Positions 5,218 to 63,999 of a stretch of DNA of 64,000 nt are shown piece by piece. Position 1 is the first letter of the stretch. The number at the start of each line of letters is the position of its first letter. The translations under genes and the position numbers were made by a program. The notes below the pieces were generated by a model. The model saw nothing but the letters and a program-made list of their open reading frames with translations, ran no database searches and was not told the DNA's origin. Origin of the DNA: Escherichia phage EC_OE_11. The DNA lies in the sequence record OQ108497.1, one strand, 5' to 3'.

Positions 5218-5226
5218 AATAACTCC

Positions 5227-5790
5227 TTAAATAATTTTATTCATGTCTTGACAATGTAAAAGGTGTGAAACAGCTTTCCTAGGATCATCACTACCTAAAC
5301 GGTATGTGTGAAATAAATATAACCCACGTAATAAACCTAGCCTTTTGTTGTTAGCATGTAATGCTTTAGAGAAAATTATATCAAATTGTATTGACCTTTC
5401 CTCAAAAGGGATTTCATTCCACAGGCTCTTACGAAAGAGAAGAAAGAATCCTGCTAAGATAGCATCTGTAGGTACTTCCTCTATTGAGTTTCCCCATTCT
5501 AGATGTGCTCTTTTTGCAATTTCAATGTGGTGTAATATATTTGGATCTTCACTTCTTTCATTATTAAATAATTGATATGTTGATCCCAGTCTATTACAAG
5601 ATGCACCAAGAACATCAAAATCAGGATTTGAACGGACTATTGATTCCAACCAAGCAGGTTGTTCTGGAAGAAGAAACATTGTATCAATGTCTCTTAGGCA
5701 AATCCAACTATCTTCTGGTAAGACACTTATTGTGTCATTGATACCTTTTCCAATATCTCCAGAAAGATAGGGAGTTATGTGAAATATCAT
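5227..5790 (-). CDS. hypothetical protein (possibly glycosyltransferase-associated)
   Basis: 187-aa ORF in glycosyltransferase cluster. Confidence 0.45.
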   Translation of the reverse strand: MIFHITPYLSGDIGKGINDTISVLPEDSWICLRDIDTMFLLPEQPAWLESIVRSNPDFDVLGASCNRLGSTYQLFNNERSEDPNILHHIEIAKRAHLEWGNSIEEVPTDAILAGFFLLFRKSLWNEIPFEERSIQFDIIFSKALHANNKRLGLLRGLYLFHTYRLGSDDPRKAVSHLLHCQDMNKII

Positions 5791-8404: not shown

Positions 8405-8476
8405 AATTTATTATCTCCTTTGTTGTTAATTTACGTTGTCTATTTTACTAATCTTTTCTACAAAGTCAAGCGTTTT

Positions 8477-9271
8477 TTACGCTTTTGCTCCAAATTTTTT
8501 AACCCACTCGCCAAACTCTTCGGATAACAGTTTATCGTAAAGTTCTTCATCAGACAAGGACAAATCTGCAATACCGATAAAATCAACATTATCGTACTCT
8601 TTTGCCAAGTCTTTCAGGAATTTAAAGTTTGCATTACCTACACCAACCATAAACCAGTAAACAGGTGTATTGCGGTGTTTGTTCAGCAAGCTACGTACTG
8701 CTGAAGTATCCATGTTCTCCCCGTCAGTTTGGAAGAAAATCATTGCAGGAGTACGATCAACTTGTGCATTAGTATCTACAACCTGTTCTACAACAGTACG
8801 TGTAACTTGTACAAGTTCTTTTTTACCAGTTAGTTTAGCAAGGAAACCTTTAGCCGGAACTTCTTCATACTCAACGACTTCGCGTGTAATATTTTTCATA
8901 GGTACACTGCCGAAGTATGTATCATAAATCTCTTGCATTACTGGAGCATAAGCTGTACCACCGTTGATGCAAACATTAGACATGCAAGAGCCGACATAAT
9001 CATCATACACATCAGCCGTTGCAGGAGGCAGTTCAAAAGAAGAACTATTGAAAGCCCACATGTCAATCTGTGCATTATCATCAAACTTCATACCAAACGG
9101 CAGCAGTTTACCTACAAAATCACTAACAGTGCCATCACGATACAGTTCACACATACTGCCCGAAATATCTAAGGCGCTACCGACACGAAGAACAACATCG
9201 TTAATCTTTTTCTTACGCAGAGATACAGTAAGAGTTTCTTGACGTTTTTTAAGACTGATTTTATTGGACAT
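8477..9271 (-). CDS. von Willebrand factor A domain protein (TerY-like)
   Basis: MIDAS-type DISGSM, GGTAY and FFQTDGE motifs; adjacent to TerD gene. Confidence 0.65.
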   Translation of the reverse strand: MSNKISLKKRQETLTVSLRKKKINDVVLRVGSALDISGSMCELYRDGTVSDFVGKLLPFGMKFDDNAQIDMWAFNSSSFELPPATADVYDDYVGSCMSNVCINGGTAYAPVMQEIYDTYFGSVPMKNITREVVEYEEVPAKGFLAKLTGKKELVQVTRTVVEQVVDTNAQVDRTPAMIFFQTDGENMDTSAVRSLLNKHRNTPVYWFMVGVGNANFKFLKDLAKEYDNVDFIGIADLSLSDEELYDKLLSEEFGEWVKKFGAKA

Positions 9272-9272
9272 A

Positions 9273-9542
9273 TTATTTCTCCTTTCTGAGTGTAATGTTA
9301 GTAACTTCTAAATCCACTTCTACTACTTCTGTATCATATAAAATACAGTTAAGTTGACCTCTTTGTGAACCATTCAGACACATTGCTTGGTTTGTATTAA
9401 CCTTAATAAACACTAAGTTTCTGAACGTATCTAAACCAGCATCTTGATAGGCAACATAATATACGAATGTATCACCTGCGTCAAGTTCTCCAAAAGATTT
9501 AGGTTCATCTGATTTGTCGTCTTTGATATTAAATTTAAGCAC
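9273..9542 (-). CDS. hypothetical protein
   Basis: 89-aa ORF. Confidence 0.45.
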   Translation of the reverse strand: MLKFNIKDDKSDEPKSFGELDAGDTFVYYVAYQDAGLDTFRNLVFIKVNTNQAMCLNGSQRGQLNCILYDTEVVEVDLEVTNITLRKEK

Positions 9543-10098
9543 TGTCTTCTCCTTTACCTGCTCTCAAGCCTAAATAGAAAGCCTCTCTGGTGATCTTTTG
9601 CAACTCGTTTAAAGAGATAGTTACAACTAAATCATCTTCAATTTCTAGCCTTGAGTCTTCTTCTGTCTCAATGCAAGTATTATGCACTTTGTGGTAAGGA
9701 TTGTCAACACGTTTAAATTTATTATTTTCAGTGCTGAAGAAGCAATCTGGATCTTCTTCTCCATCACCCCAGCCCTGGTTAGGGTCTTCTTCAGATCTTT
9801 CTGTTGGGATCTCACCTGTAAAGTGCTCTTCTAATACCAGAGCAATACCATCCCCAAGATCGGAAGAGAACATCAAATTACAAACTTCTTCCCAAGGCAT
9901 AGACCACTTGAATCTTTTACGATTGCCATGTTTATCTTCTTCGTTAGAGAAAACACCACCATAGCTATCATAATTGCCATACATCTCTTCAACAACTTTA
10001 CCACCTTTCAAAAGAAATAGGTAGCAAGGAGAGCCATCGAAAGAGGTAGAAAGAGCAGCATTACCAGACTCTTTGCACAAGAAACTAAAGCACCCCAT
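9535..10098 (-). CDS. hypothetical protein
   Basis: 187-aa ORF. Confidence 0.5.
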   Translation of the reverse strand: MGCFSFLCKESGNAALSTSFDGSPCYLFLLKGGKVVEEMYGNYDSYGGVFSNEEDKHGNRKRFKWSMPWEEVCNLMFSSDLGDGIALVLEEHFTGEIPTERSEEDPNQGWGDGEEDPDCFFSTENNKFKRVDNPYHKVHNTCIETEEDSRLEIEDDLVVTISLNELQKITREAFYLGLRAGKGEDSA

Positions 10099-10298
10099 TA
10101 TACACCAGCCTTAAGATCAATTAAAGCCAAAGTTGTTTCAGAATGTGTTTGCTCGTCTACAGGTGCAGTCATATGATAATACAAAAAGTCTTCGGCATCA
10201 TACCAATCTGACTCTTGACCTTGTTTCCAACCATCAATGAAAGCATCTTCCATGATGGTTTGTAACTCTTCACGAGTTAAGTGAATATCTTTACTCAT
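10098..10298 (-). CDS. hypothetical protein
   Basis: 66-aa ORF, coupled. Confidence 0.45.
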   Translation of the reverse strand: MSKDIHLTREELQTIMEDAFIDGWKQGQESDWYDAEDFLYYHMTAPVDEQTHSETTLALIDLKAGV

Positions 10299-10531
10299 TA
10301 CACATTCTCCTCTTTTACCAATTCCATCGTTGAACTATCAAAACCATCTTTAGAAGAATAGGTATAGACAGGACGTAGTTCTCGCAGGACAGTGAATACA
10401 TTAGGATCATCTAACCAAGCATCCTGGAGGAGAACATAACGATCTTCATTGTCGTACTGGACAGCAATCATAGAACCAGACAGTTTGTAAATTTTAATAT
10501 TCATAATATATTTCTCCTTAAAGTAGACCAC
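10298..10531 (-). CDS. hypothetical protein
   Basis: 77-aa ORF, coupled. Confidence 0.45.
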   Translation of the reverse strand: MVYFKEKYIMNIKIYKLSGSMIAVQYDNEDRYVLLQDAWLDDPNVFTVLRELRPVYTYSSKDGFDSSTMELVKEENV

Positions 10532-11621
10532 GTTTAACAGTTTGAATCATACCATCTTCAAGAGATTGTACTTCTTGGATGTAATCAATACGAGCAGCAC
10601 GGGCTTCAGTGTTGATTCGGTTAGTTTCTTCCAACATTTTAACTAAGTTTTCTTGATCGCGACGTAGTGTTTCAATATCCAATACTTGACGATTAGCAAG
10701 TTGTGTAGCTTCAATTTGGTTTTGTGCAGCCAGATCACTACCCATTGCAATAGCAGCATTAAATTCATTCAGTACATTGTTCTGTGTATCGGCTGCTTTC
10801 TTCTGGCGTAGACTTTCAATATACATAGAAAAGTTTGCAGAGTAAGCAGGGATAACATTATTCACAATGTTACGTGCTGATCGCATCAAACTTGCAGATA
10901 CTTTCTGCATACTTTGTACACGTGGCCCCATCTGAACACACAGTAAACGCAAGGCTTTCAGGTCTGCAATACGAATTTCAAGCAGATCCATAGTATCACG
11001 AGTACGTTGACGCTCTTCTACTTCATTTTCAGGTAGAGTATTAAGGCGAACTTCTTCTTTTTCATAAGTAGCTGTTAGAAGCTCTATATCCCTGTTTAAG
11101 CTAAGAGCATATTTTGCAATAGCCTCTTCTAAACGTTGCAGATATCGTAAAGAATCTTCTTCTTTTTTCAAGTCTGTTTGGAGTGTCTTTACCAAACCTT
11201 CAATACGATTATTGATGGTGTCAAACTCTCCAAACAAATCTTCTTTCATACCTAACACTTTCTTAACTAGCTTACCTAAACCTTTAGATTGTTTAATAGA
11301 ATTAGGATCAAGTTGCTTTGCTTGCTTAATAAGTGCAGTTAAACGTTCACTCATTTCATCTCCCTGGGATGAACGCTGGTGTTTAAGCACTTCAGCATTA
11401 AGGTTACGAAGAGTAAGTCCTGCATCAGCACCAACTTGTTCAATCTCTTCACGAGACATTGGAGGCAGCATTTGTACAGGTCGTGCAACAGCAGGTGCAT
11501 ATACAGGGCTTGCATCCATAGCACTTGGAGCAAACAAAGACTTACTCTTTTCTGTTGTTGCCGTGAATACACTCATTTCAGACGGTTTGCTTTTTACGGC
11601 ACTGATAAAAGGACTGGACAT
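10518..11621 (-). CDS. TelA-like toxic-anion-resistance family protein (tentative)
   Basis: 367 aa, disordered N-terminus then long coiled-coil; size, architecture and Ter context match TelA/KlaB; not motif-proven. Confidence 0.45.
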   Translation of the reverse strand: MSSPFISAVKSKPSEMSVFTATTEKSKSLFAPSAMDASPVYAPAVARPVQMLPPMSREEIEQVGADAGLTLRNLNAEVLKHQRSSQGDEMSERLTALIKQAKQLDPNSIKQSKGLGKLVKKVLGMKEDLFGEFDTINNRIEGLVKTLQTDLKKEEDSLRYLQRLEEAIAKYALSLNRDIELLTATYEKEEVRLNTLPENEVEERQRTRDTMDLLEIRIADLKALRLLCVQMGPRVQSMQKVSASLMRSARNIVNNVIPAYSANFSMYIESLRQKKAADTQNNVLNEFNAAIAMGSDLAAQNQIEATQLANRQVLDIETLRRDQENLVKMLEETNRINTEARAARIDYIQEVQSLEDGMIQTVKRGLL

Positions 11622-11689
11622 TCAATTTCCTCCATATTCTTTAGTAGATGGTGATACCTCTGTACCACCATCATAACACAAATTAAGTA

Positions 11690-12541
11690 TTAAACAAACA
11701 TATCTAAATAATTTGTAGTAATAAATGCTCCATCTGCTTCCAGATTAACATAACCAGTAGCATTAGTGGTTAAGAAATCCAGATCGAAGGACTCTTTAAC
11801 ACCCCGTACCTCAACACGAGAGATATCGAATACAGGTAGTGTAACAGCCTCTTCGTGCAATACCGTACCTTTGTAGGTTGCCTTAATGATAAACTTGATA
11901 TTACCCGTTCCAGCATCATACAAAACACTTTCAAACCCTTTGAGAGTATATTTATCACCAGAAGTGAAGTGCAAAGTTGCTTTGTTTACAGTACGTTTTT
12001 TACGAGGAGTTCCTTTCACACGTTTATGATCACTACGTTTTTTGTATTTAGGAATGAATACAAACGATACACTCTCAAGAAAGGTATCAACATCAAGGAT
12101 TTTAATATCCTCTGTTGCAGCAAATTTTGAAGTCGTTGCATCAAAATGCTTTCCCCTGCGATCATACATAAAGATATCAAACCGATCTTCTAAATCAAAC
12201 AAATTATGTATCTTAATTTCAGAATGCTTGCACATTGCAGCAACCTTAAACTCTTCAAAACGTGGGTGTTCTACCAGTTCTTCAAGTTTTACACCAAAGA
12301 CAGTATATGGTTTCGAAGTTTTTTCTGGTGTTGGCATTACAGAAGCATAATCACCGATTGCGCTCTTAAAGCAAAATTGTTCTTGACCTGTATTTTTACC
12401 AACGAATTTACAGTATTCGTCATCGTGCATGCTTTCCTTGGTAGTACCAACAAACTCAAAACCATCTTTATTCTTCTCAAGAATTTCTTGATTAAAGATC
12501 CAACCTTCCAGGCGATACACTTTACCAACTTCTAGTTTCAT
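11690..12541 (-). CDS. hypothetical protein
   Basis: 283-aa ORF. Confidence 0.55.
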   Translation of the reverse strand: MKLEVGKVYRLEGWIFNQEILEKNKDGFEFVGTTKESMHDDEYCKFVGKNTGQEQFCFKSAIGDYASVMPTPEKTSKPYTVFGVKLEELVEHPRFEEFKVAAMCKHSEIKIHNLFDLEDRFDIFMYDRRGKHFDATTSKFAATEDIKILDVDTFLESVSFVFIPKYKKRSDHKRVKGTPRKKRTVNKATLHFTSGDKYTLKGFESVLYDAGTGNIKFIIKATYKGTVLHEEAVTLPVFDISRVEVRGVKESFDLDFLTTNATGYVNLEADGAFITTNYLDMFV

Positions 12542-12576
12542 CTGTTTCTCCTTCTTGTTTAATCTGTATTAAATTA

Positions 12577-13182
12577 TTAACGACGACGTGAGCTACTAAA
12601 ACTACGTTTCGACGAAGAATAACTTTTCGAAGACTTACTATAAGAGCTAATAGGACTTGAGTAAGACTTACGAGCAGAGTAATCACTATTCACTTTTGTT
12701 GTTGATGGGCGTGAATACGTTTGTACACTTTGCTGCTTAATTGTGTTTTGTTTAGTGGTTGTATATGTATTTACAGGTTTATCATAAAAACTACGCTTTT
12801 GTGTTGTATATGATTTACTGTTAGTTGTAGGAGCAGCATTGTTATTAATAATGGTTGTATTGCTACCACCATCTCTATAACCACCACCGCCACTATTACC
12901 ACTCAACATATGACCAAGAAGCATACCTGTAGCAAATTCACCTACACCAGAAGAACTACTACCGCCTCCTTGCACAACAACTGTTGAAGGTTGTGCAGGT
13001 GCTGCTTGAACAACTTGAGGTGCAGGTTGATTTACATATTGTTCATCTACCATCTGATTTGGTGTTTGTTGGTAACGTTGATTTTGTACATTTTCAGAAT
13101 CATCACAACCTACCAGCAATACACTACCTAATACAACTGCAACAATAAAAGATTTAATGTTTTTCATTTGTAACCCTCTCAT
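12577..13182 (-). CDS. lipoprotein, low-complexity S/T/Y/K-rich
   Basis: Signal peptide with LLVGC lipobox; C-terminal repetitive S/Y/K region. Confidence 0.55.
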   Translation of the reverse strand: MRGLQMKNIKSFIVAVVLGSVLLVGCDDSENVQNQRYQQTPNQMVDEQYVNQPAPQVVQAAPAQPSTVVVQGGGSSSSGVGEFATGMLLGHMLSGNSGGGGYRDGGSNTTIINNNAAPTTNSKSYTTQKRSFYDKPVNTYTTTKQNTIKQQSVQTYSRPSTTKVNSDYSARKSYSSPISSYSKSSKSYSSSKRSFSSSRRR

Positions 13183-13360
13183 TTAAAGTCTCAACACAAT
13201 TTTTAAAATCCCTAGAGAAACAATACATCTGTTCTCCGTTCCTGTTGATAGTAATTGTATGATTATCAATGTATGTTGTCAAGATAAAAATCAAACAAAA
13301 TAACCCTAAAGCAAAACAAATATTTTCAAACAGAATCCAAAGAACACGTAAAACCACCAT
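13154..13360 (-). CDS. small membrane protein (hypothetical)
   Basis: 68-aa hydrophobic ORF. Confidence 0.35.
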   Translation of the reverse strand: MVVLRVLWILFENICFALGLFCLIFILTTYIDNHTITINRNGEQMYCFSRDFKNCVETLNERVTNEKH

Positions 13361-13375
13361 CAGATCACCTCAACA

Positions 13376-13393
13376 AAGCCCCCGAAGGGGCTT
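13376..13393 (-). terminator. intrinsic terminator-like hairpin downstream of terC
   Basis: aaGCCCC-cgaa-GGGGCtt followed on minus strand by TTTGTT. Confidence 0.5.
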
Positions 13394-13399
13394 AATGAA

Positions 13400-14377
13400 T
13401 TAAGCAACAGCCTGGTCTTCTTTTTCAGGGAAGATTAAACTTGCAATGACACCCAGCCCCAGAGTACCTAACACAATATACATACTGATCGTCGGATCAA
13501 TGTGTGCTGGCAGGAAACTCACTTTTGCGTGCAGAGTTTCTGCAAACGGGTGATACATCAGTTTTACACCCACAAATACCAGGACTACGATAACTGCTTT
13601 CTCCAGATGAACCAAATATTTCAGTGCAACACTAAGGACAAAGAACAGAGCACGTAGACCTAAAATTGCACACAGCATTGAAGAAAATACAAGCAGAGGT
13701 TCTTGTGTCACTGCAATTACTGCTGGAACAGAGTCTACTGCAAAGATTACGTCAACCATTTCCATTACAAACACACAAACCAGAGCCGGAGTTGCTACAC
13801 GAACACCATTTTTGATTGTGAAGAACTTCTCACCATCCATCTGATCAGATACAGGGAACAGCTTACGAACAATGCGAGTAGCCCAGTGTTTAGAGTAATC
13901 AACTTCTGCGTCATTATCTCCAGCGAATACCATTTTAGCTGCACAGAAAAGGATGACCGCACCGAAGAAGATATTAACATACCAGCCCAAACTCAACAAA
14001 TAAGTGCCTACTGCTACAAACACACCTCGGAAGACAATCGCACCTGCAATACCCCAAAGTAGAATCTTGTGTTGCAAGTGTGTGCTTTTAATACCAAAAC
14101 TTGCGAATACTGCCACAAATACTACTAAGTTATCTACAGAAAGAGATTTCTCCAACACATATCCACTCAAGAACAAGCTCGCAAAATCAGCACCGTGCTG
14201 GAAGTATACAAAACCATAGTAGGCTAATGATACCCCAATCCAGAAAATTGACCAACCAATTGCAGATTTAAATGAAATTTCTTTGTTTTCTCTGTGTCCA
14301 AAGAAATCAATACAAATCGACAACACTAAAATACCCACTAAAACAACCACATCAATAATTGGGAAACCCAGTTGCAT
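13400..14377 (-). CDS. terC: TerC-family integral membrane protein
   Basis: Multi-TM protein with duplicated TerC signature (LEKSLSVDNLVVF...LWGIAGAIVFRG and AVDSVPAVIAV...ILGLRALFF). Confidence 0.8.
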   Translation of the reverse strand: MQLGFPIIDVVVLVGILVLSICIDFFGHRENKEISFKSAIGWSIFWIGVSLAYYGFVYFQHGADFASLFLSGYVLEKSLSVDNLVVFVAVFASFGIKSTHLQHKILLWGIAGAIVFRGVFVAVGTYLLSLGWYVNIFFGAVILFCAAKMVFAGDNDAEVDYSKHWATRIVRKLFPVSDQMDGEKFFTIKNGVRVATPALVCVFVMEMVDVIFAVDSVPAVIAVTQEPLLVFSSMLCAILGLRALFFVLSVALKYLVHLEKAVIVVLVFVGVKLMYHPFAETLHAKVSFLPAHIDPTISMYIVLGTLGLGVIASLIFPEKEDQAVA

Positions 14378-14395
14378 TCTTATCTCCTCTTTAAT

Positions 14396-14414
14396 GCGGA
14401 GGACAATCCTCCGC
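14396..14414 (-). terminator. GC stem-loop just upstream of terC SD (terminator/attenuator)
   Basis: GCGGAGG-acaat-CCTCCGC hairpin between 14455..14703 and terC. Confidence 0.4.
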
Positions 14415-14454
14415 TCTATGTCTTATACTATAAACTGTTTTTAAAGAAAGTCAA

Positions 14455-14703
14455 CTAGTTCAGTTCTGTAATTTTAAGTTTATCTTCTTTGTTAATGATA
14501 GGGAAAGCTACAGCATCACCTACGTCATCAATAAAGCAAATAGCAAGACCACCTTCCACTTTACTAATCTGACCCTTAAAGGCGCGATACGGGGCAGGAA
14601 CTTTATCTCCATCTTCAAGGATAATAGCCTCGTAAACCTTGCCGATAGTACAATCACGAGTGTTTCTAAATTTTTCAAGCACTTCAACATTTACTTTACG
14701 CAT
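14455..14703 (-). CDS. hypothetical protein
   Basis: 82-aa ORF. Confidence 0.5.
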   Translation of the reverse strand: MRKVNVEVLEKFRNTRDCTIGKVYEAIILEDGDKVPAPYRAFKGQISKVEGGLAICFIDDVGDAVAFPIINKEDKLKITELN

Positions 14704-14718
14704 ATAAAAAATCCTCTC

Positions 14719-14925
14719 TTATTTGTTAGATTGAAAGATACCACGAAGTACCGCAAGAATGAACGTCACACAGACTACACTCCAAAACGTTACAGGAACA
14801 TGATGCCAGTCTAAACCGATAATGTCAATCATATAGTTGTATGCTAAAAGCAGCAGCCAACTAGGGATTAACACAATCAAAAACACAACAATAAAACAAC
14901 CTAATACTGCTAAAACACCTGCCAT
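14719..14925 (-). CDS. small membrane protein
   Basis: 68 aa, two predicted TM helices. Confidence 0.5.
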   Translation of the reverse strand: MAGVLAVLGCFIVVFLIVLIPSWLLLLAYNYMIDIIGLDWHHVPVTFWSVVCVTFILAVLRGIFQSNK

Positions 14926-14934
14926 ACTTTCTCC

Positions 14935-15651
14935 TTATTTCAGTTTGTAAACAATTACATTTAAACCTTTGTTTACTAGAGTTTCTTCGATCATAAGTTT
15001 TACAATATTCCAAGAACCTCCAGCCAAACCACAACCAAGCATTGGTAAACCTACAATTTTACCGCCTGAAGATACAACATCGTCTCCCATACTATCTAGC
15101 GCATTGTAGATAGCTTCATAATTCAGATCACGCTTACCTTCCTCACGACTACTATAACCATATTGTCCATATAAATTATAAATTGTCAAATTGTTTTCTG
15201 TATATTTGGTAAACGTACCTAATTTTTTATAATCACCACGTTTAGTGGCACAATCTGCTTTAAACGCACCAGGCCACTTGCTTTTAATTTTTGGTGCAAT
15301 ACCACTACCCATAGTGCAAAAACAGTTACAGCAGTGTGCTATAGCGTCTATATCGCCTCTCTCGGCTGCTGCTAAAAGATCACCGTATACCTCAACGATA
15401 CCTGCTGGATAACTTGTTACAATTTCATCTTCCCAGTACATTTTCTCTACACCACCGATCAGTGCAAAGTTTTGTGTAATGCGATCATCAATATAGTTAA
15501 GACCTGAAACATACACAGCGTATTCATCCTGTGCTGTAATACCTTGCACACGAATTCTTAAGACACCATCTTTATCTGTTGCTACACGCCCAAAATCTTT
15601 TTCTGTAATATTGGTGATAGGATCTCCGAAAGTCATTACTTTATTAGACAT
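14935..15651 (-). CDS. macro-domain-like protein (putative ADP-ribose binding/processing), tentative
   Basis: DAIAHCCNCFCTMGSGIA resembles macro DAIVNAAN..LGGGGV motif, later LPMLGCGLAGG; start moved to ATG at 15651 (SD AAAGGGGA) to clear PRTase overlap. Confidence 0.4.
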   Translation of the reverse strand: MSNKVMTFGDPITNITEKDFGRVATDKDGVLRIRVQGITAQDEYAVYVSGLNYIDDRITQNFALIGGVEKMYWEDEIVTSYPAGIVEVYGDLLAAAERGDIDAIAHCCNCFCTMGSGIAPKIKSKWPGAFKADCATKRGDYKKLGTFTKYTENNLTIYNLYGQYGYSSREEGKRDLNYEAIYNALDSMGDDVVSSGGKIVGLPMLGCGLAGGSWNIVKLMIEETLVNKGLNVIVYKLK

Positions 15652-16501
15652 AATAATCCCCTTTAACATTAGATTTGTTGATAATGTTGCTTTCAAAAAA
15701 TTGACGTAGGAAATCAAAGTTCTCTTTGTATTTTTCAATGTTATTGTAGCCTTCTGCAAGGCAACCAAAGAACAGTTGTTCTACATAATACAAAGGAAGC
15801 TGTGAAAGTGCAATTTTAAAATCAACTTCGCTTTGACTCATTAGATACTTAATAGGACGAACCAAACATTTAGCATCAGTTTCTTGCTTAATCATTTTAA
15901 TAAAAGCTGCCAGGTTATTGATATAGTTGAAGTTAAGTGCAGCTTCGGTGTTGGCTTCTGTACCTTCATACTTTGCAAAGTACAGGAAAAACGTATCGTT
16001 TTCAACACCTTCTTTGTCTAAAATTTCAATAAGTTTTTCTTCGTGTGTTCCTGTAATATTAACATCATCAATGAAAATCAGAGTTTTATTACCCCAGAAA
16101 TCACGATTGATAGAGAAAGTGTCACCATCGATCAAAGCCTTACGATCTTCTTTGCTAAGAAATCCATAATCATTGATATAGCTCACTTTACGATGAACGA
16201 TATCCCACTCCACTGGTTTACCACCTTTGATAGAGATTAGGTAGTTGAGGTGATCTACAAAATGTTCAGATAACACTGTAGCTGCATTTTTCACATAGTT
16301 ATATGGAGATGGAATAACAACAAAACTTTCATTTACCAGTCGTTCTTCATACTTAGAAAAGAAACTTTCAGCCAGAATGCGCCCCATTCTTTTTGCTGCC
16401 TGGTTACTACCAAACTTTAGTTTGGAATAATCTGCAATGTTAAATTTTGCTTCCTTCAGGTTAGTAAAAGTATTAGCAAAATGTTGAATTTGATTACGCA
16501 T
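15644..16501 (-). CDS. phosphoribosyltransferase-like protein (Ter-associated PRTase type)
   Basis: PRPP-binding-like motif LIFIDDVNITGTHE; AGAGGA SD. Confidence 0.6.
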   Translation of the reverse strand: MRNQIQHFANTFTNLKEAKFNIADYSKLKFGSNQAAKRMGRILAESFFSKYEERLVNESFVVIPSPYNYVKNAATVLSEHFVDHLNYLISIKGGKPVEWDIVHRKVSYINDYGFLSKEDRKALIDGDTFSINRDFWGNKTLIFIDDVNITGTHEEKLIEILDKEGVENDTFFLYFAKYEGTEANTEAALNFNYINNLAAFIKMIKQETDAKCLVRPIKYLMSQSEVDFKIALSQLPLYYVEQLFFGCLAEGYNNIEKYKENFDFLRQFFESNIINKSNVKGDYYV

Positions 16502-17150
16502 TAATAAGTTCCTCTTTTTTAAGTTTAGCCAACAAGTTTTCTGGATTAATAATATGACAGAACTTCATCCCTATGTCAACAGCTTTTCCATCATAGATCA
16601 AACTATCTCCAACGTGTAAGATCTCCTCTGGTGCGAGATCAAACGTTACCATTTCATCAAAAGAGAGTTTAAAAAACCTAGGATCTGGTTTACACAAGCA
16701 AAACTCATCAGAAAAATGCATAAAGTCGAATGGTAATTTTGTCAAGCCAGAATATACAGCTAAGAAACTACCAGGTACAAAATTGGTATTGCTCTTAATA
16801 CTCAAAGAATAGGTTGAACTTAGCTCTTCCAACTTCTTGCAAAGTTCAGGGTTTAATGTTGGAGGATGTTTTATAAACATTGCTAAACAGTCTCTTTTTA
16901 ACCCATCCACCTTATCAAGATCAATGTTCAAATGAGCAGAAAGTGTTTCCCAAGCATTTCTAGATGTTCCACAAATGCCTTTTTCTGCTTTTAAATCCAA
17001 GAGAGTTTTTACCTCTTTATATACGGTAGCTGCTTCTACCTCAGAACAAGAGGCATACTCGGCAATAACCTTGTTGCGTTCTTCTGCATACAAAGGATTA
17101 GCAGTAATAAGAGTATTCCATACATCAAAAGAAATATGCTTAACAGTCAT
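16494..17150 (-). CDS. HAD-superfamily hydrolase (phosphatase)
   Basis: Motif I ISFDVWNTL and C-terminal HVGDSLIYDG; start set to ATG at 17150 with GGAGG SD. Confidence 0.6.
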   Translation of the reverse strand: MTVKHISFDVWNTLITANPLYAEERNKVIAEYASCSEVEAATVYKEVKTLLDLKAEKGICGTSRNAWETLSAHLNIDLDKVDGLKRDCLAMFIKHPPTLNPELCKKLEELSSTYSLSIKSNTNFVPGSFLAVYSGLTKLPFDFMHFSDEFCLCKPDPRFFKLSFDEMVTFDLAPEEILHVGDSLIYDGKAVDIGMKFCHIINPENLLAKLKKEELINA

Positions 17151-17319
17151 TTTTAATCCTCCGTCCAAAAGAATATCATCTGCTTAATTTTATTGATCTC
17201 TTGATGTAGTAACTTTCCAGCATGTAATTGATCTTTAATATTGACAGCAAGAATTTCAAGCTCCGTCAGTTTTTCTTGGATAGCTTTATATTCATCATCT
17301 GTAAGCATTTTCTTCCCCT

Positions 17320-25078: not shown

Positions 25079-25555
25079 TCAACCTCTCTTAATTTGTTTA
25101 ACAAGCATAGGAACAAAATCTCGTTTTAAAATTTGTTCAATAATGTGATCAGGTAGCTGTTGGAAATTATAATTAAAAGCTACTGTTTCACCTTTAGGTG
25201 TTTCTACTCGCACATATAACATGTTGCGAAGTTTATCCACTTGTGCTGTATATTCTAAACCACGTAATTGATGCATTGCAAACATCAAATCATCAGTTTC
25301 AGTTTGGAATCTATCCCTTGTCTGCATCAAGGATAAGGCAAAAGGTAGATTTTCCCTAAGAGCCACCTTCTTAGGCACTAGTGAAGGGAAATACTCCCCA
25401 ATAACTTCCTGTGTAAGCTGAATACACTCTTTTTCAAGCTGGTTTTGTTCCTTGAGTTCACAAACACTTTTTTGTAAAGTGTTAACCTCTTTTTGCAAAG
25501 CTGCTAGTTGAGCACTTAACTTTCTTTTTTGATTACGACCAAAACGTTTAGACAT
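25079..25555 (-). CDS. hypothetical protein (coiled-coil N-terminus)
   Basis: 158-aa ORF. Confidence 0.5.
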   Translation of the reverse strand: MSKRFGRNQKRKLSAQLAALQKEVNTLQKSVCELKEQNQLEKECIQLTQEVIGEYFPSLVPKKVALRENLPFALSLMQTRDRFQTETDDLMFAMHQLRGLEYTAQVDKLRNMLYVRVETPKGETVAFNYNFQQLPDHIIEQILKRDFVPMLVKQIKRG

Positions 25556-25563
25556 ATTTCCCC

Positions 25564-26079
25564 CTAGTAAAACCCCTTAACAATTTGTATTAACTCGGCA
25601 CAACGGTTGACCAACTTTTCCTCGTACAATACACGTTGTGGCATATGTTGTATAATATACTCCATTTGCTCATGCCATGTCCACTTTTCTTTTTTGTCTG
25701 GGATAACATCACTAGCACGAGAATTATCTTTTAATGTTTGTATAATCCAATTGCTTGGAAAGTGCTCTCCACCTTTCTTAAATGGTTTATAGTGGCCTAG
25801 AGTGAATTGAGAATCCCCTGTTAGAGCACCCAATTTATTTAGATGGATAATCAAACTACGAAACACGTAGTATTCATAGATGTTATCCACCGTATAGCAA
25901 GCATAATATTTCAAGATGCCCTTATCTCGCGGATACTTACCAACATCCAGATTACACCAGTTGACATTTTCTGGATCATAGTGGTGTTCCTTAAGCCATA
26001 TTTCTCTTTCATCAAAGTCTGGATATATTACCGCCCTGCTTACAGAGTCAACAAGTGGAGATTGAGCATCAAAAAACAT
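25564..26079 (-). CDS. hypothetical protein
   Basis: 171-aa ORF. Confidence 0.5.
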   Translation of the reverse strand: MFFDAQSPLVDSVSRAVIYPDFDEREIWLKEHHYDPENVNWCNLDVGKYPRDKGILKYYACYTVDNIYEYYVFRSLIIHLNKLGALTGDSQFTLGHYKPFKKGGEHFPSNWIIQTLKDNSRASDVIPDKKEKWTWHEQMEYIIQHMPQRVLYEEKLVNRCAELIQIVKGFY

Positions 26080-26100
26080 TATATTTTCCTTATTGGTTTG

Positions 26101-26466
26101 TTAAACGTTTTCTAAATCTTTTAAGGCATTACCCAACGTTAGAACAATAACATCGTTTGCTGCCTCTTCCCCATTGATATTGGTGAAATTTGGTGTGACA
26201 AAAGTAACCATATAAAACTCGTCCACCTGGAAGATAGCAATAACACCATCCATCTTAACATCTTGACGAAAGGAAAAACCAATCATCTTCTCTTGCAAAG
26301 GCATATCCCCTTCCTTCATTACCGCCAGGGAGTTTTCAGGAATGTTATATTTATCTGCTCCGATGTAGATGTACGTAATGTTATCTTTATCGTGATGATA
26401 CAGGGTTGCTTTTTCCATGTCTAAACCTGACAGATCAAATACGTTAATTTCTTGTGTAGTCTTCAT
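26101..26466 (-). CDS. hypothetical protein
   Basis: Start moved to ATG at 26466 with GGGAGG SD. Confidence 0.5.
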   Translation of the reverse strand: MKTTQEINVFDLSGLDMEKATLYHHDKDNITYIYIGADKYNIPENSLAVMKEGDMPLQEKMIGFSFRQDVKMDGVIAIFQVDEFYMVTFVTPNFTNINGEEAANDVIVLTLGNALKDLENV

Positions 26467-26830
26467 AAATATCCTCCCAAATCCAATAATCATCTGTGTA
26501 AGTAGGATGCCTTTTATCCCACTCTGTTCTAGCCCAAGCAACCGCTGCTACCAACACATCACCATGACAAGGTTGAGGTGAGCAGAAGCAAACTAAGTCT
26601 TTCCCTTCTAATTCTAACAAATCTTCAAGAGTGATTTTACCACAACGAATTTGCTCCCACAACCACTCTTTATATCTTTGTATAGTTGATCCTCGTGGTT
26701 CATCATCCTTTAACTTGAAAGGATTTGCAAACTTTGAGGCTTTTAACCCCATATGAGGCATAGCTCTACCAATGTACACTGCACCTTCAGGTATTACTTT
26801 ACCTAAGTGGTAAAAATTTAATACTTTCAT
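26444..26830 (-). CDS. DUF4326-like protein (tentative)
   Basis: CFCSPQPCHGDVL motif. Confidence 0.4.
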   Translation of the reverse strand: MKVLNFYHLGKVIPEGAVYIGRAMPHMGLKASKFANPFKLKDDEPRGSTIQRYKEWLWEQIRCGKITLEDLLELEGKDLVCFCSPQPCHGDVLVAAVAWARTEWDKRHPTYTDDYWIWEDIYEDYTRN

Positions 26831-26831
26831 A

Positions 26832-27182
26832 TTAACCCAAACACATCCGCGCGATCAAGCCTTGTATAAATTTATTAGCTTCTTTACTGTCGTAGTCAGT
26901 CTCTTCTGGATATCCATCTTCATCGTACACAACTGTACCTTCAATATACCCTGCCTCAATTAAGGCGCGGATCATATCAAATTGCCAGCATGAGTTACCA
27001 AATGGACGTTTACCATTAAAACACTCTTCTTCTCTCCATAACGTAGAGAGTAGTTGTCGGAAATATTCCCGTACAGTGACAGTACCAAGATCTGAATCCT
27101 CAAACATAACATCCAGAGCATCAGGATTGCTTTTCTCTACGTAAGGAATATATTTAACACCATTAATAGTTACATCAAGCAT
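26832..27182 (-). CDS. hypothetical protein
   Basis: 116-aa ORF. Confidence 0.5.
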   Translation of the reverse strand: MLDVTINGVKYIPYVEKSNPDALDVMFEDSDLGTVTVREYFRQLLSTLWREEECFNGKRPFGNSCWQFDMIRALIEAGYIEGTVVYDEDGYPEETDYDSKEANKFIQGLIARMCLG

Positions 27183-27545
27183 TTATTTCTCCTTATCATC
27201 ATATTCTAGGAACATATCTGCACGATATGCTTTACGCTCTTCAAACTTAGCAGGATTTACAACAATAAGCAATACAAGGTTAACATCTAAATACTTCTTA
27301 ACAAATAGAAATAAATCTTTTCCACAGTTAAAACCTACACCAGTATAGGCATCCCCATATTGATCTACTGATTTAATCTTCTTACTAACCGTACACTCTA
27401 TGCTATTCTTTTCTTCTTGGTATAAGGCTTTCCCACCCCAATATGTAAAGAATTTAGTACCGTCAGCACCAAGTTTAAAACCTTCTGTTGCATGTCCAGC
27501 AAATGAAAGTAAACATAACCAAGTAATCATCAGGTACTTTAGCAT
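27183..27545 (-). CDS. secreted/periplasmic protein (signal peptide)
   Basis: Start at ATG 27545 (GGGTGG SD); N-terminal signal-like MLKYLMITWLCLLSFAGHA. Confidence 0.5.
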   Translation of the reverse strand: MLKYLMITWLCLLSFAGHATEGFKLGADGTKFFTYWGGKALYQEEKNSIECTVSKKIKSVDQYGDAYTGVGFNCGKDLFLFVKKYLDVNLVLLIVVNPAKFEERKAYRADMFLEYDDKEK

Positions 27546-33646: not shown

Positions 33647-34819
33647 ATGGTAGCACTAAAATCATGGGAACAATATAAAGAAGAATTAATACCCCTTGCT
33701 AAAAATCACAATATTCAAATCTTGGGTTATGTTGGTGAATGGAAAGGGAACAAGACTAAACTTAAGCTATCTTGCCCTAAACATGGAGAGTGGAACACCA
33801 CGAACATTAATGATTTTAAGAAGGGACGTGGTTGTCCTATCTGTTCTGGTAAGAAGCCGTTAACATGGGAAACAGAATTGCCGATCTTGGAAGAGATAGC
33901 ACAGAAGAGGGGGTATCAGGTGTTAGGGTACGTGGGAGAATGGAAAGGGAATAAAACAAAACTTGATTTGTTGTGTCATTGTGGTAATAAATGGGATACT
34001 ACAAGTATTAACAATTTTAAACGTGGTAGCGGTTGTCCACAATGTAAGAGGGAGAGACAAACAATGTCCGACGATCAACATATTGCAGATTTCTTTTCTA
34101 CAGGGGAATTTAAGGAAGGCACTATCTTCACCAATACAGGGAAACGTAACAAGCGTGATGCAGTATGGATGGTTGAGTGTCCTGTTTGCTCCCATGATGA
34201 ATATGTTCAAGCAGGTGTTTGTGATGGTAAATTTTACTCTGCAGGACATAACCTTAAACAAGGGTATATTCCGTGTCGTTGTGGGAACTATCAGTATACA
34301 GAAGACCAGATCACCTATAGGGTAAAAAAGGAAGTAGAAGGGAAAGGGTATGTCTGGGTAGATTGGATTACCAAACCCTCTTCTATAGGTAAGTTTAAAT
34401 ATCTTTGTCTTGTGCATGGTGAGCAGATAGGGAGTGCTCGTAATTTATTAAGCCTCGGTCAAGGTTGTCCACAGTGTGCTGGTCATAATCAACAGCAATT
34501 ATATATTAATATTGTTAAAGATAATGATATTATAGTTGCTCTTAAGTTTGGCATAGCTAAAGATAGTGACAGGCGATTAAACAATCAAAATAGGCGTAAT
34601 ATGTTTTTTATGGAGCGTATTTGTTTATATGATTTTAGTACAGTGAAACAGTGTAAGGCTGCTGAAAGAGCTATAAAGAAAAAACTAAAAACTGGTATTT
34701 TAACAGCAAGAGAGTTGAAAGATGGTTATACAGAAACAGTAAGTGTTTCTGATTTGGAAAATCTTCAAAAAATTATTACACAATATGGTGGCAAGTTAGT
34801 ATACAGTAAGGAGGTGTAA
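33647..34819 (+). CDS. zinc-ribbon-repeat protein with C-terminal GIY-YIG-like (T5orf172/MUG113-type) domain
   Basis: Two about 45-aa repeats (GYVGEWKGNKTKL..C..G.W.TT.IN.FK.G.GCP.C) plus more CxxC pairs; C-terminal LYINIV...KFGIAKDSDRRL...AERAIKKKL. Confidence 0.45.
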   Translation: MVALKSWEQYKEELIPLAKNHNIQILGYVGEWKGNKTKLKLSCPKHGEWNTTNINDFKKGRGCPICSGKKPLTWETELPILEEIAQKRGYQVLGYVGEWKGNKTKLDLLCHCGNKWDTTSINNFKRGSGCPQCKRERQTMSDDQHIADFFSTGEFKEGTIFTNTGKRNKRDAVWMVECPVCSHDEYVQAGVCDGKFYSAGHNLKQGYIPCRCGNYQYTEDQITYRVKKEVEGKGYVWVDWITKPSSIGKFKYLCLVHGEQIGSARNLLSLGQGCPQCAGHNQQQLYINIVKDNDIIVALKFGIAKDSDRRLNNQNRRNMFFMERICLYDFSTVKQCKAAERAIKKKLKTGILTARELKDGYTETVSVSDLENLQKIITQYGGKLVYSKEV

Positions 34820-35371
34820 ATGCGGATTACTGATAAGTATGTGTTCTTCTTCTCGGCAAAAGATGAATTTAGCAACTGGTATCTATCATCTTTTATTGAA
34901 CCTTTAGCTCCCAAGTATAATAATTCTATTACAAGTTCTGTTGAATTTACTTGTGTGGAACAATATATGATGTGGAGAAAAGCATGTTTGTTTTATGATT
35001 ACAACATTGCATCTTCTATTTTAACCGGAGATCTAAGATATACAGGAGAAAAAGAACAGGCATATTATAAGCGACTAGGTAGATTAGTTAAAGATTACGA
35101 TGAAGCTACTTGGACTTCTTTACGGGAGAAGATTGTCAAGCGTGGTTTGTATCTTAAATACACACAAAATGAAGATCTCAAAAATAAACTTATAGCTTAC
35201 GCAGATAAGGAGTTTGTAGAGGCAAGTCCTTATGATTCTATTTATGGTATCAAAATGGGGATGTGGGATCGGGACGTGGAAAATAAGGATTGTTGGAAAG
35301 GACAAAATCTTTTAGGAAAATGGCATACAGACCTTGCTGTTTATCTAAAATCACAATCTGATATTTCCTGA
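34820..35371 (+). CDS. NADAR-family protein (YbiA-like)
   Basis: FFFSAKDEFSNW, CVEQYMMWRKA, EASPYDSIYGIK, GQNLLGKW align to YbiA motifs. Confidence 0.7.
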   Translation: MRITDKYVFFFSAKDEFSNWYLSSFIEPLAPKYNNSITSSVEFTCVEQYMMWRKACLFYDYNIASSILTGDLRYTGEKEQAYYKRLGRLVKDYDEATWTSLREKIVKRGLYLKYTQNEDLKNKLIAYADKEFVEASPYDSIYGIKMGMWDRDVENKDCWKGQNLLGKWHTDLAVYLKSQSDIS

Positions 35372-60716: not shown

Positions 60717-60753
60717 ATAAAGCCCCTAGAAGCGATTCTAGGGGCTTTTGTTT
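60717..60753 (+). terminator. strong intrinsic terminator ending the plus-strand block
   Basis: AGCCCCTAGAA-gcga-TTCTAGGGGCT + TTTTGTTTG. Confidence 0.85.
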
Positions 60754-61117: not shown

Positions 61118-61930
61118 TTATTTAGTCAAATGATCTTCTATCATTTTTATGAAAGCAGGATTGCTAAAAGCATCTGCGGCCTTTTCTCGATAAACAAAGA
61201 CTCCTCTATCTTCGTAAAGAAGAGTTTCTTCGTAATTAATTCCTGGGTTAACAACGATCATTTTTGTACCCATATTAAGTGCAGGGAATAATTCCCAATT
61301 AAAATTGATAACTTGGTTTGAACATCCTACTACTACAACCAAATCTTGCATGGTCAAAGTATCAAACAAGTGAGCCATATCTGCATACAAAGGTGCAGCC
61401 TCACCAAAAAATACAACATTAGGCTTCACCCAGTTGTAATCATCTATGTTTATACTGTTGTAACCAATATCTACCAGTGTTTTGTAATCCCCAGGATGCA
61501 TACGGTAAACTATTTCAGGAAGATATCCGTGCACGTGAATAACCGAATCTCTGTCTACACCTGCTCGCTCTAGTAGATCATCGACGTTTGTTGTCAAGTT
61601 TACTACTTGGTTAGGATATTCCTTAAACCACTTTGCTATTTGAATATGTGCAGCATTAGGTTGTACATCTTTAAGCTCAACACGTCTTTTGTTATAAAAT
61701 TCGTGTGTTTTGGCATACAAATCCATACCGTTCTCGTCTACACCACCAACCACGGGAAGATCTGGAGATGTTCTAACACGATAACCTGCTTGGAAAGCTC
61801 CAATATCGCAGACCTCTTCTAAATCATATTCTTCCCATAAGGCACGACCACTATCGGTGTCTGTTCGGAATGTTCGAATCCCACTGTCTGCACTTAAACC
61901 TGCGCCACTGACAAAAATTACTCTTCGCAT
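61118..61930 (-). CDS. Sir2-family protein (sirtuin-like NAD-dependent deacylase or ADP-ribosyltransferase)
   Basis: VIFVSGAGLSADSGIRTFR, PNAAHIQIA, TTNVDDLLERAG...HVHG, VVFFGE, VVVGCSNQV; no obvious Zn-binding CxxC pairs. Confidence 0.75.
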   Translation of the reverse strand: MRRVIFVSGAGLSADSGIRTFRTDTDSGRALWEEYDLEEVCDIGAFQAGYRVRTSPDLPVVGGVDENGMDLYAKTHEFYNKRRVELKDVQPNAAHIQIAKWFKEYPNQVVNLTTNVDDLLERAGVDRDSVIHVHGYLPEIVYRMHPGDYKTLVDIGYNSINIDDYNWVKPNVVFFGEAAPLYADMAHLFDTLTMQDLVVVVGCSNQVINFNWELFPALNMGTKMIVVNPGINYEETLLYEDRGVFVYREKAADAFSNPAFIKMIEDHLTK

Positions 61931-62472: not shown

Positions 62473-62490
62473 ATATCCTCCAGACAAATA

Positions 62491-62509
62491 AAGCCCCTGC
62501 TTGGGGCTT
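62491..62509 (-). terminator. intrinsic terminator-like hairpin
   Basis: aaGCCCC-tgctt-GGGGCtt then TATTTGT on minus strand. Confidence 0.5.
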
Positions 62510-62526
62510 TGGTTAAGTTTTACGGA

Positions 62527-63138
62527 TTATACCAGACTTTTAAGGTACTTGTCAAGGGCTTCTTGATCACCTTGACAAACATAGCAACGGAAGTCTTGAG
62601 CAGAAGGTTCTTTGTCCTCGTCCCAATCCCAGTAGACAGTACCTTTATAGCGTGAGCCTGGGAACTCGAAGTATGCTACATGAGTAATATGGTGTGGGCC
62701 ACCCCAAAACTCTGTAAAAGTAAATTGAGGATACGCGGCTTTAACTGTATTTTCAAACCAAGTTTTACGATCTAATGCTTCGTTTATAAAATAAGCATGG
62801 CGTTCCATTTCATCCCAATCTTTCCAAACGCATTTTTCATCCAGAGAGAAAACAAAATTTTCACTGTTAAACTCGTCTGTATCTGATTCCAAAATATCAT
62901 AGTCATGTGCACTAGGTATCCACCACCCAGCTTCTAATAGTGCTTTTGCAGGTACAAAACCTTTTTCAGCGTATTGATCAAATTCTTTTACTCTACGTAC
63001 AGTGCAGTATTCATCTTCACCACCAATGTCCAATAGACAAGCGCCTCTGCGTCTTGCTGCAAGACCATGTGTATCAAAAACTACAACGCTACCTTCACCA
63101 TCTTCACGATCTACTTGATATGCAACTTTTTGAGTCAT
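62527..63138 (-). CDS. hypothetical protein
   Basis: 203 aa; GGGGG SD. Confidence 0.55.
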   Translation of the reverse strand: MTQKVAYQVDREDGEGSVVVFDTHGLAARRRGACLLDIGGEDEYCTVRRVKEFDQYAEKGFVPAKALLEAGWWIPSAHDYDILESDTDEFNSENFVFSLDEKCVWKDWDEMERHAYFINEALDRKTWFENTVKAAYPQFTFTEFWGGPHHITHVAYFEFPGSRYKGTVYWDWDEDKEPSAQDFRCYVCQGDQEALDKYLKSLV

Positions 63139-63139: not shown

Positions 63140-63262
63140 TTACCCCCAATGTATATGGGAAATTACCCAAAAGATAAATTCCCAAAAACACCAACCAAGA
63201 AAAGTTAATGGAATTATAAAAGCTATCAGAGCAGTCTTCCAGCCTTTCCACAATGTTTCCAT
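63140..63262 (-). CDS. small membrane peptide (40 aa), not in ORF track
   Basis: ATG 63262 with GGGGGAATA SD, overlaps upstream stop by 1 nt. Confidence 0.4.
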   Translation of the reverse strand: METLWKGWKTALIAFIIPLTFLGWCFWEFIFWVISHIHWG

Positions 63263-63999
63263 TATTCCCCCATAGATTTAAGAATATGTGCAATAACAGG
63301 TATAGTCCAACCATTGCCTAACATCTTATATGCTTGTGTGTTACTACTCACTTTAAAGTAATCATCTGGAACACCTTGTAAGCGGCAACACTCTTTAACC
63401 GTTAACTTTCTATAATGTACGCCTTCACTCAATTTTTCAAAGGCATCTAGATATCTTCCAGGTGGAATGTAAGCTAGTAGTACGTCTTTAGGCACAGTCG
63501 TGAGGCAACGAGTTTTTTCACTGTCCTGAACTTCCAAACAATGTACCAAACGATCAGTTTTAGATGTATTACGTTTGCCATTTTCATTAATTCTACGCCC
63601 ATATATTGCTGCCGGATAAAAAGCCAGTTGTCTGCGACTCTTTTCAAAATACTGTTCTATATTACCACCTTTGGCATAATTTGCATCTATGCAATAAGCC
63701 TTATCTCTGTCTACGATACTATCATCTTCAATGATATCTTGCAACACTTCATTGGTAATATCCCAAGGTTTTATTTCCCAATTGCACCAGTATAAACGTT
63801 GTCTATTCTGTGCCGTGAAATCTGCGGAGTTAATGAATACGGGATCAACACCTAAGTAACTTGTGATCACGTTTTCCCACTCCACCTTCATCTTAACGTT
63901 TTCAAGCATGAACTTAACATTAGGGTTAAACTTTTTAATATGTTCAAGAATTTCAACATATTCAAAGAACAGTTTTGATCGCGGGTCTTCAAAGTTCAA
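63262..63999 (-). CDS. DNA (cytosine-5)-methyltransferase, C-terminal part (5' end beyond window)
   Basis: Motif VI FMLENVKMK, motif VIII TAQNRQRLY, motif X MLGNGWTIPVIAHIL; motifs I and IV (PCQ) expected upstream. Confidence 0.7.
   Translation of the reverse strand: MNFEDPRSKLFFEYVEILEHIKKFNPNVKFMLENVKMKVEWENVITSYLGVDPVFINSADFTAQNRQRLYWCNWEIKPWDITNEVLQDIIEDDSIVDRDKAYCIDANYAKGGNIEQYFEKSRRQLAFYPAAIYGRRINENGKRNTSKTDRLVHCLEVQDSEKTRCLTTVPKDVLLAYIPPGRYLDAFEKLSEGVHYRKLTVKECCRLQGVPDDYFKVSSNTQAYKMLGNGWTIPVIAHILKSMGE

Follow-up and report, generated by a model that had tools for sequence, protein, structure and literature searches.

The gene that runs off the end of our window, a stretch of 64,000 nucleotides from Escherichia phage EC_OE_11 (OQ108497.1), very probably encodes a stand-alone, SAM-dependent DNA C5 methyltransferase that phi92-like phages carry as an accessory function and that probably blocks host restriction enzymes. 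As summarised in Table 1, the 3' part of the gene retains the downstream catalytic motifs of this family in their canonical order, and no nuclease partner adjoins it.

The reading frame fills the listed interval exactly, with its TAA stop at 63262-63264, and continues without a break to the end of the window, so that the TTG listed as its start at 63999 is simply an internal leucine codon. Alignment to full-length orthologues, which share 98-99% nucleotide identity with the window copy, shows that, of the 329 residues, the fragment holds 85-329. What lies past the end of the window is thus 84 codons (26%), a quarter of the protein rather than the N-terminal half that the earlier note had supposed. 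We identified the gene as the orthologue of phi92 gp043 (YP_009012374.1; 329 aa), which is labelled 'DNA methyltransferase / putative site-specific DNA-methylase', and of bas61_0190 from the BASEL phage Bas61 EmilieFrey, labelled 'Dcm-like C5 cytosine methyltransferase'. More than 50 phi92-like coliphages, of the genus Justusliebigvirus, match the last 3 kb of the window at 97-99% nucleotide identity (97.5-99.1% for phi92 and relatives that carry the orthologue), and across the 245 encoded residues there are 4 to 6 amino-acid differences from phi92 and Bas61. The codon differences from phi92 comprise 17 synonymous and 4 non-synonymous changes, the latter giving E88, A210, N228 and D243 in the window copy for Q, V, S and N in phi92; from Bas61 the corresponding numbers are 18 and 6. 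This excess of synonymous changes indicates that the gene is under purifying selection. A pseudogene or chance open reading frame was ruled out by this ratio together with the profile scores and the conservation of motifs described below.

To identify the family we relied on profile matches. The fragment matches Pfam PF00145 (C-5 cytosine-specific DNA methylase) with E=1.9e-20 and 74 bits, against a cut-off of 22, with fragment residues 3-244 aligned to profile positions 83-323 of 324, a match far beyond chance. It also matches PHROG 116 (phrog_116, 'DNA methyltransferase') with E=3.3e-40. The score of 72.1 bits against TIGR00675 (NCBIfam) is under the cut-off of 100.65 because the fragment is truncated; the full-length phi92 orthologue reaches 142.7 bits over the whole profile (1-329). 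Residue conservation was assessed in an alignment of 72 sequences made up of the window fragment, a full-length homologue 97% identical to it, and homologues down to 57% identity to the latter. Across these sequences there was little or no variation in PCQ, ENV, GN or the two QxRxR arginines, and motifs I and IX were also nearly invariant. The earlier note had recognised, from motifs VI, VIII and X, an m5C methyltransferase cut by the window edge, and the PF00145 match and the motifs bear this out on the minus strand: all three motifs were located (ENV, QNRQR and GNG), and motif IX was found in addition, in a region that aligns to DNMT3A 235-277. The order, with VI and VIII followed by a variable region and then by IX and X, is canonical for C5 methyltransferases. 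The motif X core is predicted to form part of the SAM pocket. The variable region, which contains conserved CIDANYAKGG and CLTTVPKD elements, is predicted to determine the DNA target.

Table 1. Features of the methyltransferase gene and its downstream flank (window coordinates; residue numbers refer to the 329-residue protein; invariance refers to the 72-sequence alignment)
Feature	Coordinates	Strand	Basis or remarks
C5-cytosine DNA methyltransferase gene, 3' part	63262..63999	minus	738 nt, 245 codons plus TAA stop
Motif VI, ENV (residues 117-119)	63895..63903	minus	Sequence; E117, N118 and V119 invariant
Motif VIII, QNRQR (residues 148-152), QxRxR signature	63796..63810	minus	R150 and R152 invariant
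Target-recognition region (predicted), variable (residues 153-280, 128 residues)	63412..63795	minus	Between motifs VIII and IX
Motif IX, RKLTVKECCRLQGVPDDY (residues 281-298)	63358..63411	minus	R281, E287, L291 and Q292 invariant
Motif X core, GNG (residues 312-314)	63310..63318	minus	G312 and N313 invariant
40-codon hydrophobic ORF, phi92 gp042 orthologue	63140..63262	minus	ORF list and sequence
Terminator-like GC hairpin and T-rich tail	62490..62510	minus	Consensus scan only: AAAGCCCCAAGCAGGGGCTTT then ATTTGTCTGG

The part of the protein beyond the window edge was read from relatives. In phi92, Bas61 and the closest record, 92CQ (99.1% nucleotide identity), the missing stretch is MKVLSLFDGMSGG...GGSPCQGFSSSGKG. 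All three encode motif IV as GGSPCQGF, with the catalytic cysteine at C75, and a glycine-rich motif I, LSLFDGMSGG, which aligns to LSLFDGIATG of DNMT3A and to the start of the TIGR00675 and PHROG 116 profiles. Given relatives at 98-99% identity, the window copy presumably has the same cysteine and the same motif I. The earlier note had named an upstream sequence lacking FxGxG and PCQ as evidence against its assignment. In these relatives PCQ is present, whereas a literal FxGxG is not, its place being taken by the FDGxxxG variant of DNMT3 type; in substance, the upstream sequence thus appears to be that of a C5 methyltransferase.

We further evaluated the fold using an AlphaFold2 model of the full-length homologue (P0001), which is 97% identical to the window fragment and 98% identical to phi92 gp043. 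The model has a mean pLDDT of 86.4 and a pTM of 0.83, with low confidence only at the catalytic loop (residues ~71-90) and in part of the recognition region (180-206), and shows a class I methyltransferase fold with a small recognition domain. When searched against the PDB with Foldseek, its top 50 matches were all DNMT3A/B/C catalytic domains or M.HhaI (probability 1.00; E values 8e-19 to 4e-16). The query-normalised TM-score against DNMT3 and HhaI was lowered to ~0.64 by the recognition region, which fails to superpose on these structures. Sequence matches to DNMT3A/B, M.HhaI and M.HaeIII were at ~1e-23, far stronger than those to DNMT2 tRNA methylases (1e-7 to 1e-11), from which we infer, by family membership, the standard C5-methyltransferase mechanism and an active enzyme whose substrate is DNA and not RNA.

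These data allow us to propose how the enzyme may work. The gene would be transcribed as part of a compact leftward operon, whose genes are non-structural, and the enzyme would methylate phage DNA as it replicates, at a short motif selected by the 128-residue region between motifs VIII and IX. The target cytosine would be flipped out of the helix and attacked at C6 by the PCQ cysteine, which is encoded just past the window edge, while the ENV glutamate and the QxRxR arginines would hold and activate the flipped base for transfer of the SAM methyl group to C5. In the established M.HhaI/DNMT mechanism, the motif VI glutamate contacts N3/N4 of the flipped target cytosine. The likeliest benefit would be to block those restriction enzymes of the host whose sites are still present in the genome.

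The neighbourhood of the gene is that of an accessory cassette. The start of the methyltransferase gene overlaps the stop of gp044 by one base in the leftward operon, and its stop in turn overlaps the ATG of the gp042 orthologue by one base (TAATG, 63260-63264). This small frame is possibly a translationally coupled passenger of the same variable cassette; its reality as a gene is doubtful. The phi92 annotation of gp042 carries the remark 'bad prodigal statistics', and tblastn with this very short query returned no match in the sister phage phAPEC8. The gp041 orthologue follows next in the operon, and the terminator-like hairpin downstream of it is likely to mark the 3' end of the leftward methyltransferase transcription unit. 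The window and its phi92-like relatives share the neighbours Sir2, gp039, gp041 and gp042. In phi92 the gene sits among early/middle host-interaction genes (Sir2, phosphatase, DprA-like).

No cognate restriction endonuclease, as expected of a type II restriction-modification (RM) system, was found beside the methyltransferase gene, and a Pfam scan of the neighbours gp041, gp042 and gp044-046 detected no domain. phAPEC8 keeps the order Sir2, gp039, gp041, gp044, gp045, gp046 and DprA-like gene; there, gp041 and gp044 flank an unrelated protein of 227 aa, which carries the annotation 'DNA methyltransferase' and has no Pfam match, and no C5 methyltransferase was detected in the 50 kb of phAPEC8 read. 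Since these neighbours carry no Pfam domain, and since phAPEC8 retains gp041 and gp044 while lacking the C5 enzyme, the methyltransferase is an orphan. In this respect the suggestion of a phage-borne orphan methyltransferase in the earlier note holds.

We looked for homologues by tblastn in 50,697 phage records. Matches of at least 95% protein identity were found in 54 records, all sampled ones being phi92-like, and a single further record lay at 60-80%. All other homologues were below 60% and belonged to Vibrio phages (including ICP1), jumbo coliphages, and Bacteroides and Cellulophaga phages. A broader homology search returned at least 8000 candidate proteins, all with E<=1e-5, among which metagenomic homologues shared 55-65% identity. 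Two of the metagenomic homologues, at 55-60% identity, lie on longer contigs in phage replication/lysis modules that contain no nuclease. From this distribution, the slot occupied and the orphan homologues, the gene is a genus-specific accessory cassette whose wider family of orphan methyltransferases in phages is very large.

Site frequencies were counted in a composite genome of 146,467 nt, formed by the window and the rest of Bas61. Of the 64 six-base palindromes, 22 are wholly absent, including AAGCTT (46 expected), AGTACT (22), GGTACC (21), CAGCTG (20) and GGATCC (19); CTGCAG occurs once against 34 expected, and GGWCC never against 48. The EcoRI and EcoRV sites are at expectation, with 35 GAATTC (33 expected) and 55 GATATC (54 expected). 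Among shorter sites, GGCC, CCGG and CATG are reduced to 0.4-0.54 of expectation, whereas other C-containing sites are close to it: GCGC (1.06), GCWGC (1.06), CCWGG (0.93), ACGT (0.94) and TGCA (0.97). These five are candidate targets of the C5 enzyme. GATC is also at its expected frequency, and may be covered by the N6_N4 methylase of the phage, which is annotated as Dam-like.

We nevertheless rejected naming the target from site frequencies, since the first 50 kb of phAPEC8, which has no C5 enzyme, leaves the same short sites equally unavoided. The largest difference in frequency between the composite genome and phAPEC8 is at GTAC (0.77 versus 0.35), which is suggestive at most. AGCGCT and GGCGCC, both of which contain GCGC, are absent from the composite genome, which speaks against full protection of GCGC. 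Other routes to the target were also set aside. Solved relatives were uninformative, as the alignment with DNMT3, HhaI and HaeIII is confined to the catalytic domain and nothing informative matches the recognition region. A partner nuclease could not serve as a guide, the two homologues on longer contigs being orphans. Finally, the label 'Dcm-like' was not accepted as a claim of CCWGG specificity, given 28.8 bits against the NF007772 subfamily cut-off of 710.

Protection against restriction by the methyltransferase is plausible. The extreme avoidance of six-base palindromes indicates that site avoidance is the main anti-restriction strategy of this genome. Frequent short sites stay at their expected frequency, so the sites that remain could be covered only by methylation. 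The extent of avoidance suggests that methylation is a minor complementary layer over short sites that cannot be purged. In the BASEL study, phi92-like phages were 'exceptionally susceptible' to the RM systems tested (PMC8594841), from which it follows that any protection conferred by the methyltransferase is narrow; in line with this susceptibility, the unavoided GAATTC and GATATC sites are of a kind through which a phage is exposed to restriction. The literature searched yielded no 5mC, methylome or biochemical data on phi92-like phages; papers such as the BME3 paper and that of Olsen et al. list the genes. For several close relatives, the host field of the record names E. coli K-12 MG1655 as the isolation strain. 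This strain carries McrA, McrBC and Mrr. Presumably, then, the methylated motif is a poor substrate for these 5mC-dependent nucleases, or methylation is sparse.

The enzyme could act on phage DNA and yet owe its value to something other than classical anti-restriction, such as evasion of other methylation-sensitive defences, a mark on replicated DNA that serves packaging or gene regulation, or an effect that interferes with the DNA of the host. According to the literature, many RM systems still act on phi92-like phages, as do Druantia III, ARMADA II and Zorya II, and with most six-base palindromes already purged, methylation may serve another end; the position among early/middle host-interaction genes would also fit such a role. 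However, we found no positive evidence for it, short sites that cannot be purged are still abundant, and orphan phage methyltransferases are generally explained by restriction evasion, an explanation for which Murphy et al. 2013 is cited. We therefore regard a role outside anti-restriction as unlikely. We give hardly any credence to a protein that is catalytically dead or that acts on RNA in the manner of DNMT2. The departure of motif I from a literal FxGxG could be read in this direction, but it offers no direct support, and DNMT3A, a bona fide DNA enzyme, carries the same variant. Moreover, none of the catalytic residues has been lost, purifying selection acts on the gene, and DNMT2/tRNA enzymes match at least 12 orders of magnitude worse than DNA enzymes.

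Of a different kind is the possibility that the methyltransferase performs the first step of a cytosine hypermodification, in which 5mC is oxidised to 5hmC and then glycosylated by the phage glycosyltransferases and dTDP-rhamnose genes, as in TET phages. The earlier note had likewise suggested an interplay with glycosyltransferase-based modification. The window encodes four glycosyltransferases at 2614-5790 on the minus strand, beside the primase/helicase. One of these glycosyltransferases (4534-5217, minus) weakly matches both the TET-associated glycosyltransferase family (TAGT; PF20691, E=6.8e-5) and the PHROG of the T4 beta-glucosyl-HMC alpha-glucosyltransferase (E=5e-5); Olsen et al. raised the speculation that hydroxymethylated bases are rhamnosylated. 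The PF20691 match, however, spans just 60 residues, and its 23.3 bits fall short of the Pfam cut-off of 27.5. It is also the best such match, no TAGT-family gene adjoins the methyltransferase, and the glycosyltransferase genes lie ~58 kb away. phAPEC8 has dTDP-rhamnose genes yet no C5 methyltransferase in the 50 kb read, and phi92-like phages are highly restriction-sensitive. A route from 5mC through 5hmC to a glycosylated base requires an oxidase. At E<=0.01-0.05, a scan of ~40 ORFs (150 aa or longer) in the window and its relatives' flanks detected no TET/JBP or other 2OG-dioxygenase domain, and none is annotated in Bas61. The proposed interplay is thus unsupported, and we consider such a pathway very improbable. 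The chances are just as slim that 5mC at specific sites is the substrate for a TET-independent modification by the four glycosyltransferases and the dTDP-rhamnose pathway. If this were true, phi92-like DNA would bear a sparse, sequence-specific sugar modification missed by standard restriction assays. We therefore favour the stand-alone methyltransferase that probably shields phage DNA from host restriction.

The gene is real, ordinary and already known: many public genomes annotate it, as a DNA methyltransferase since the phi92 record and as a Dcm-like C5 methyltransferase in the BASEL collection. Its importance as a discovery is small, and orphan methyltransferases of this family are very numerous in phages. 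phi92-like phages are, however, candidates for therapy with an unusually broad host range, and a possible contribution of methylation to that range is of practical interest. phi92 gp043 and its orthologues are the same gene with the same neighbours, from which the window copy differs only by the cut at the window end and a few substitutions.

Among solved structures, the best match in both sequence and structure is to the catalytic domain of mammalian DNMT3A and DNMT3B (PDB 6w89, 6u8p; phmmer 1.3e-23, Foldseek 8e-19), with target-normalised TM-scores of ~0.73-0.77 and 22-25% identity to the phage protein. Common to both are the unusual motif I (LSLFDG...G), PC, ENV, RxR and the C-terminal motifs IX-X. 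In contrast, DNMT3 has a short CpG recognition loop, forms oligomers with DNMT3L and carries chromatin-reader domains, whereas the phage protein has no extra domains, a 128-residue recognition region that does not superpose, and PCQ where DNMT3 has PCN. M.HhaI (GCGC) and M.HaeIII (GGCC) share the fold, the motif order and presumably the base-flipping covalent mechanism of the phage enzyme, with E values of ~1e-22 over an alignment limited to the catalytic domain; unlike the phage enzyme, they are paired with a restriction enzyme. E. coli Dcm (CCWGG) belongs to the same superfamily and some records label the phage gene 'Dcm-like', but the phage enzyme is not a Dcm orthologue, its sub-threshold NF007772 match being confined to the C-terminal 46 residues. 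Further counterparts are the phage orphans of PHROG 116, from Vibrio phage ICP1, the E. coli jumbo phages phAPEC6/Sharanji, and other Vibrio, Cellulophaga and Bacteroides phages, for which we found no measured target in the literature searched. These are full-length homologues at 35-52% identity; their recognition regions vary in length (proteins of 270-430 aa), and some consist of two methyltransferases fused in tandem (558-562 aa). All share the motif set FDGMSCG, PCQ, ENV, QNRQR and GNGW, and those examined are likewise orphans within phage modules.

Comparison of window positions 63140-63999 with positions 25464-27188 of the sister phage phAPEC8 shows that the interval between the orthologues of phi92 gp041 and gp044 is a swap site. 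In phi92-like phages this slot is filled by the C5-cytosine methyltransferase together with a 40-codon ORF, whereas the phAPEC8 slot holds a 227-aa protein that is unrelated to the C5 methyltransferase, is annotated as 'DNA methyltransferase' and has no Pfam match. Separately, some metagenomic homologues of the methyltransferase (P0014 and P0054) consist of two complete C5 methyltransferase modules fused in tandem (558-562 aa); each module has the FDG, PCQ, ENV and GNG motifs, and the recognition regions differ between modules.

The closest public record to the window is that of the phi92-like phage 92CQ (PV682554.1; 99.1% nucleotide identity), and its last base coincides with the window end at position 64000. 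The first 33 nt of PV682554.1 recur, with a single mismatch, as the last 33 nt of the record, which is therefore a circular assembly opened within the methyltransferase gene; the only annotations of this gene there are truncated 'hypothetical proteins'. The source record of the window may carry the same break, in which case the 5' end of the gene would lie at the record's other end. Five unannotated 'Campylobacter phage' records, with C. jejuni given as host, share 97.3% identity with the window sequence over 3 kb; records under this name that match phi92-like sequence include MG065639, MG065645, MG065656 and MG065689, and their host label looks doubtful.

Restriction sites were counted in a composite genome of 146,467 nt, made up of the whole window and two loci that supply the rest of the genome from the phi92-like phage Bas61. 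Avoidance in this composite is extreme, with 22 of the 64 six-base palindromes absent. AAGCTT does not occur (46 expected), nor does GGWCC (48 expected), nor any of AGTACT, GGTACC, CAGCTG and GGATCC (about 20 expected for each), and CTGCAG is found once against 34 expected. GGCC, CCGG and CATG are reduced to 0.4-0.54 of expectation; counts of GAATTC, GATATC, GATC and GCGC match it. The pattern in the first 50 kb of phAPEC8 is unlike that of the composite, showing no avoidance of GGWCC (0.79 of expectation) and strong avoidance of GTAC (0.35).

Downstream of the methyltransferase, a predicted sigma-70 promoter overlaps the gp041 orthologue at its 3' end. This promoter and the two hairpins listed below could possibly represent a repeated promoter/stem-loop unit. 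A Sir2-family protein is also encoded here and, taken with the CapR/T5orf172, NADAR and macro domain proteins, suggests an NAD/ADP-ribose-related toolkit. Elsewhere, a tellurite-resistance-type (Ter) gene set followed by nucleotide-related genes occupies 7808-17168 on the minus strand.

Coordinates of predicted features in the window
Feature	Position	Strand	Remarks
Four glycosyltransferase genes	2614-5790	-	adjoining primase/helicase
TerD	7808-8404	-	Ter set
vWA-TerF-like	8477-9271	-	Ter set
TelA	10518-11621	-	Ter set
TerC	13400-14377	-	Ter set
Macro domain protein	14935-15768	-	after Ter set
ComF-like phosphoribosyltransferase	15644-16501	-	after Ter set
HAD hydrolase	16494-17168	-	after Ter set
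CapR-domain/T5orf172 protein (390 aa), then NADAR-domain protein (183 aa)	33647-35371	+	
Second hairpin	60719-60748		arms identical to those of 62490-62510; between convergent gene blocks
Sir2-family protein	61118-61930	-	three genes downstream of methyltransferase
GC hairpin, AAAGCCCC...GGGGCTTT	62490-62510		directly after predicted promoter
Predicted sigma-70 promoter	62526-62555	-	consensus scan; perfect consensus TTGACA-18 nt-TATAAT, upstream TG

The glycosyltransferases belong to PHROG 7162 (two paralogues), 2456 (one) and 14179 (one), and their candidate substrate is either DNA or a host surface glycan. The PHROG 2456 member gives sub-threshold matches to TAGT and to the glucosyl-HMC-glucosyltransferase of T4.
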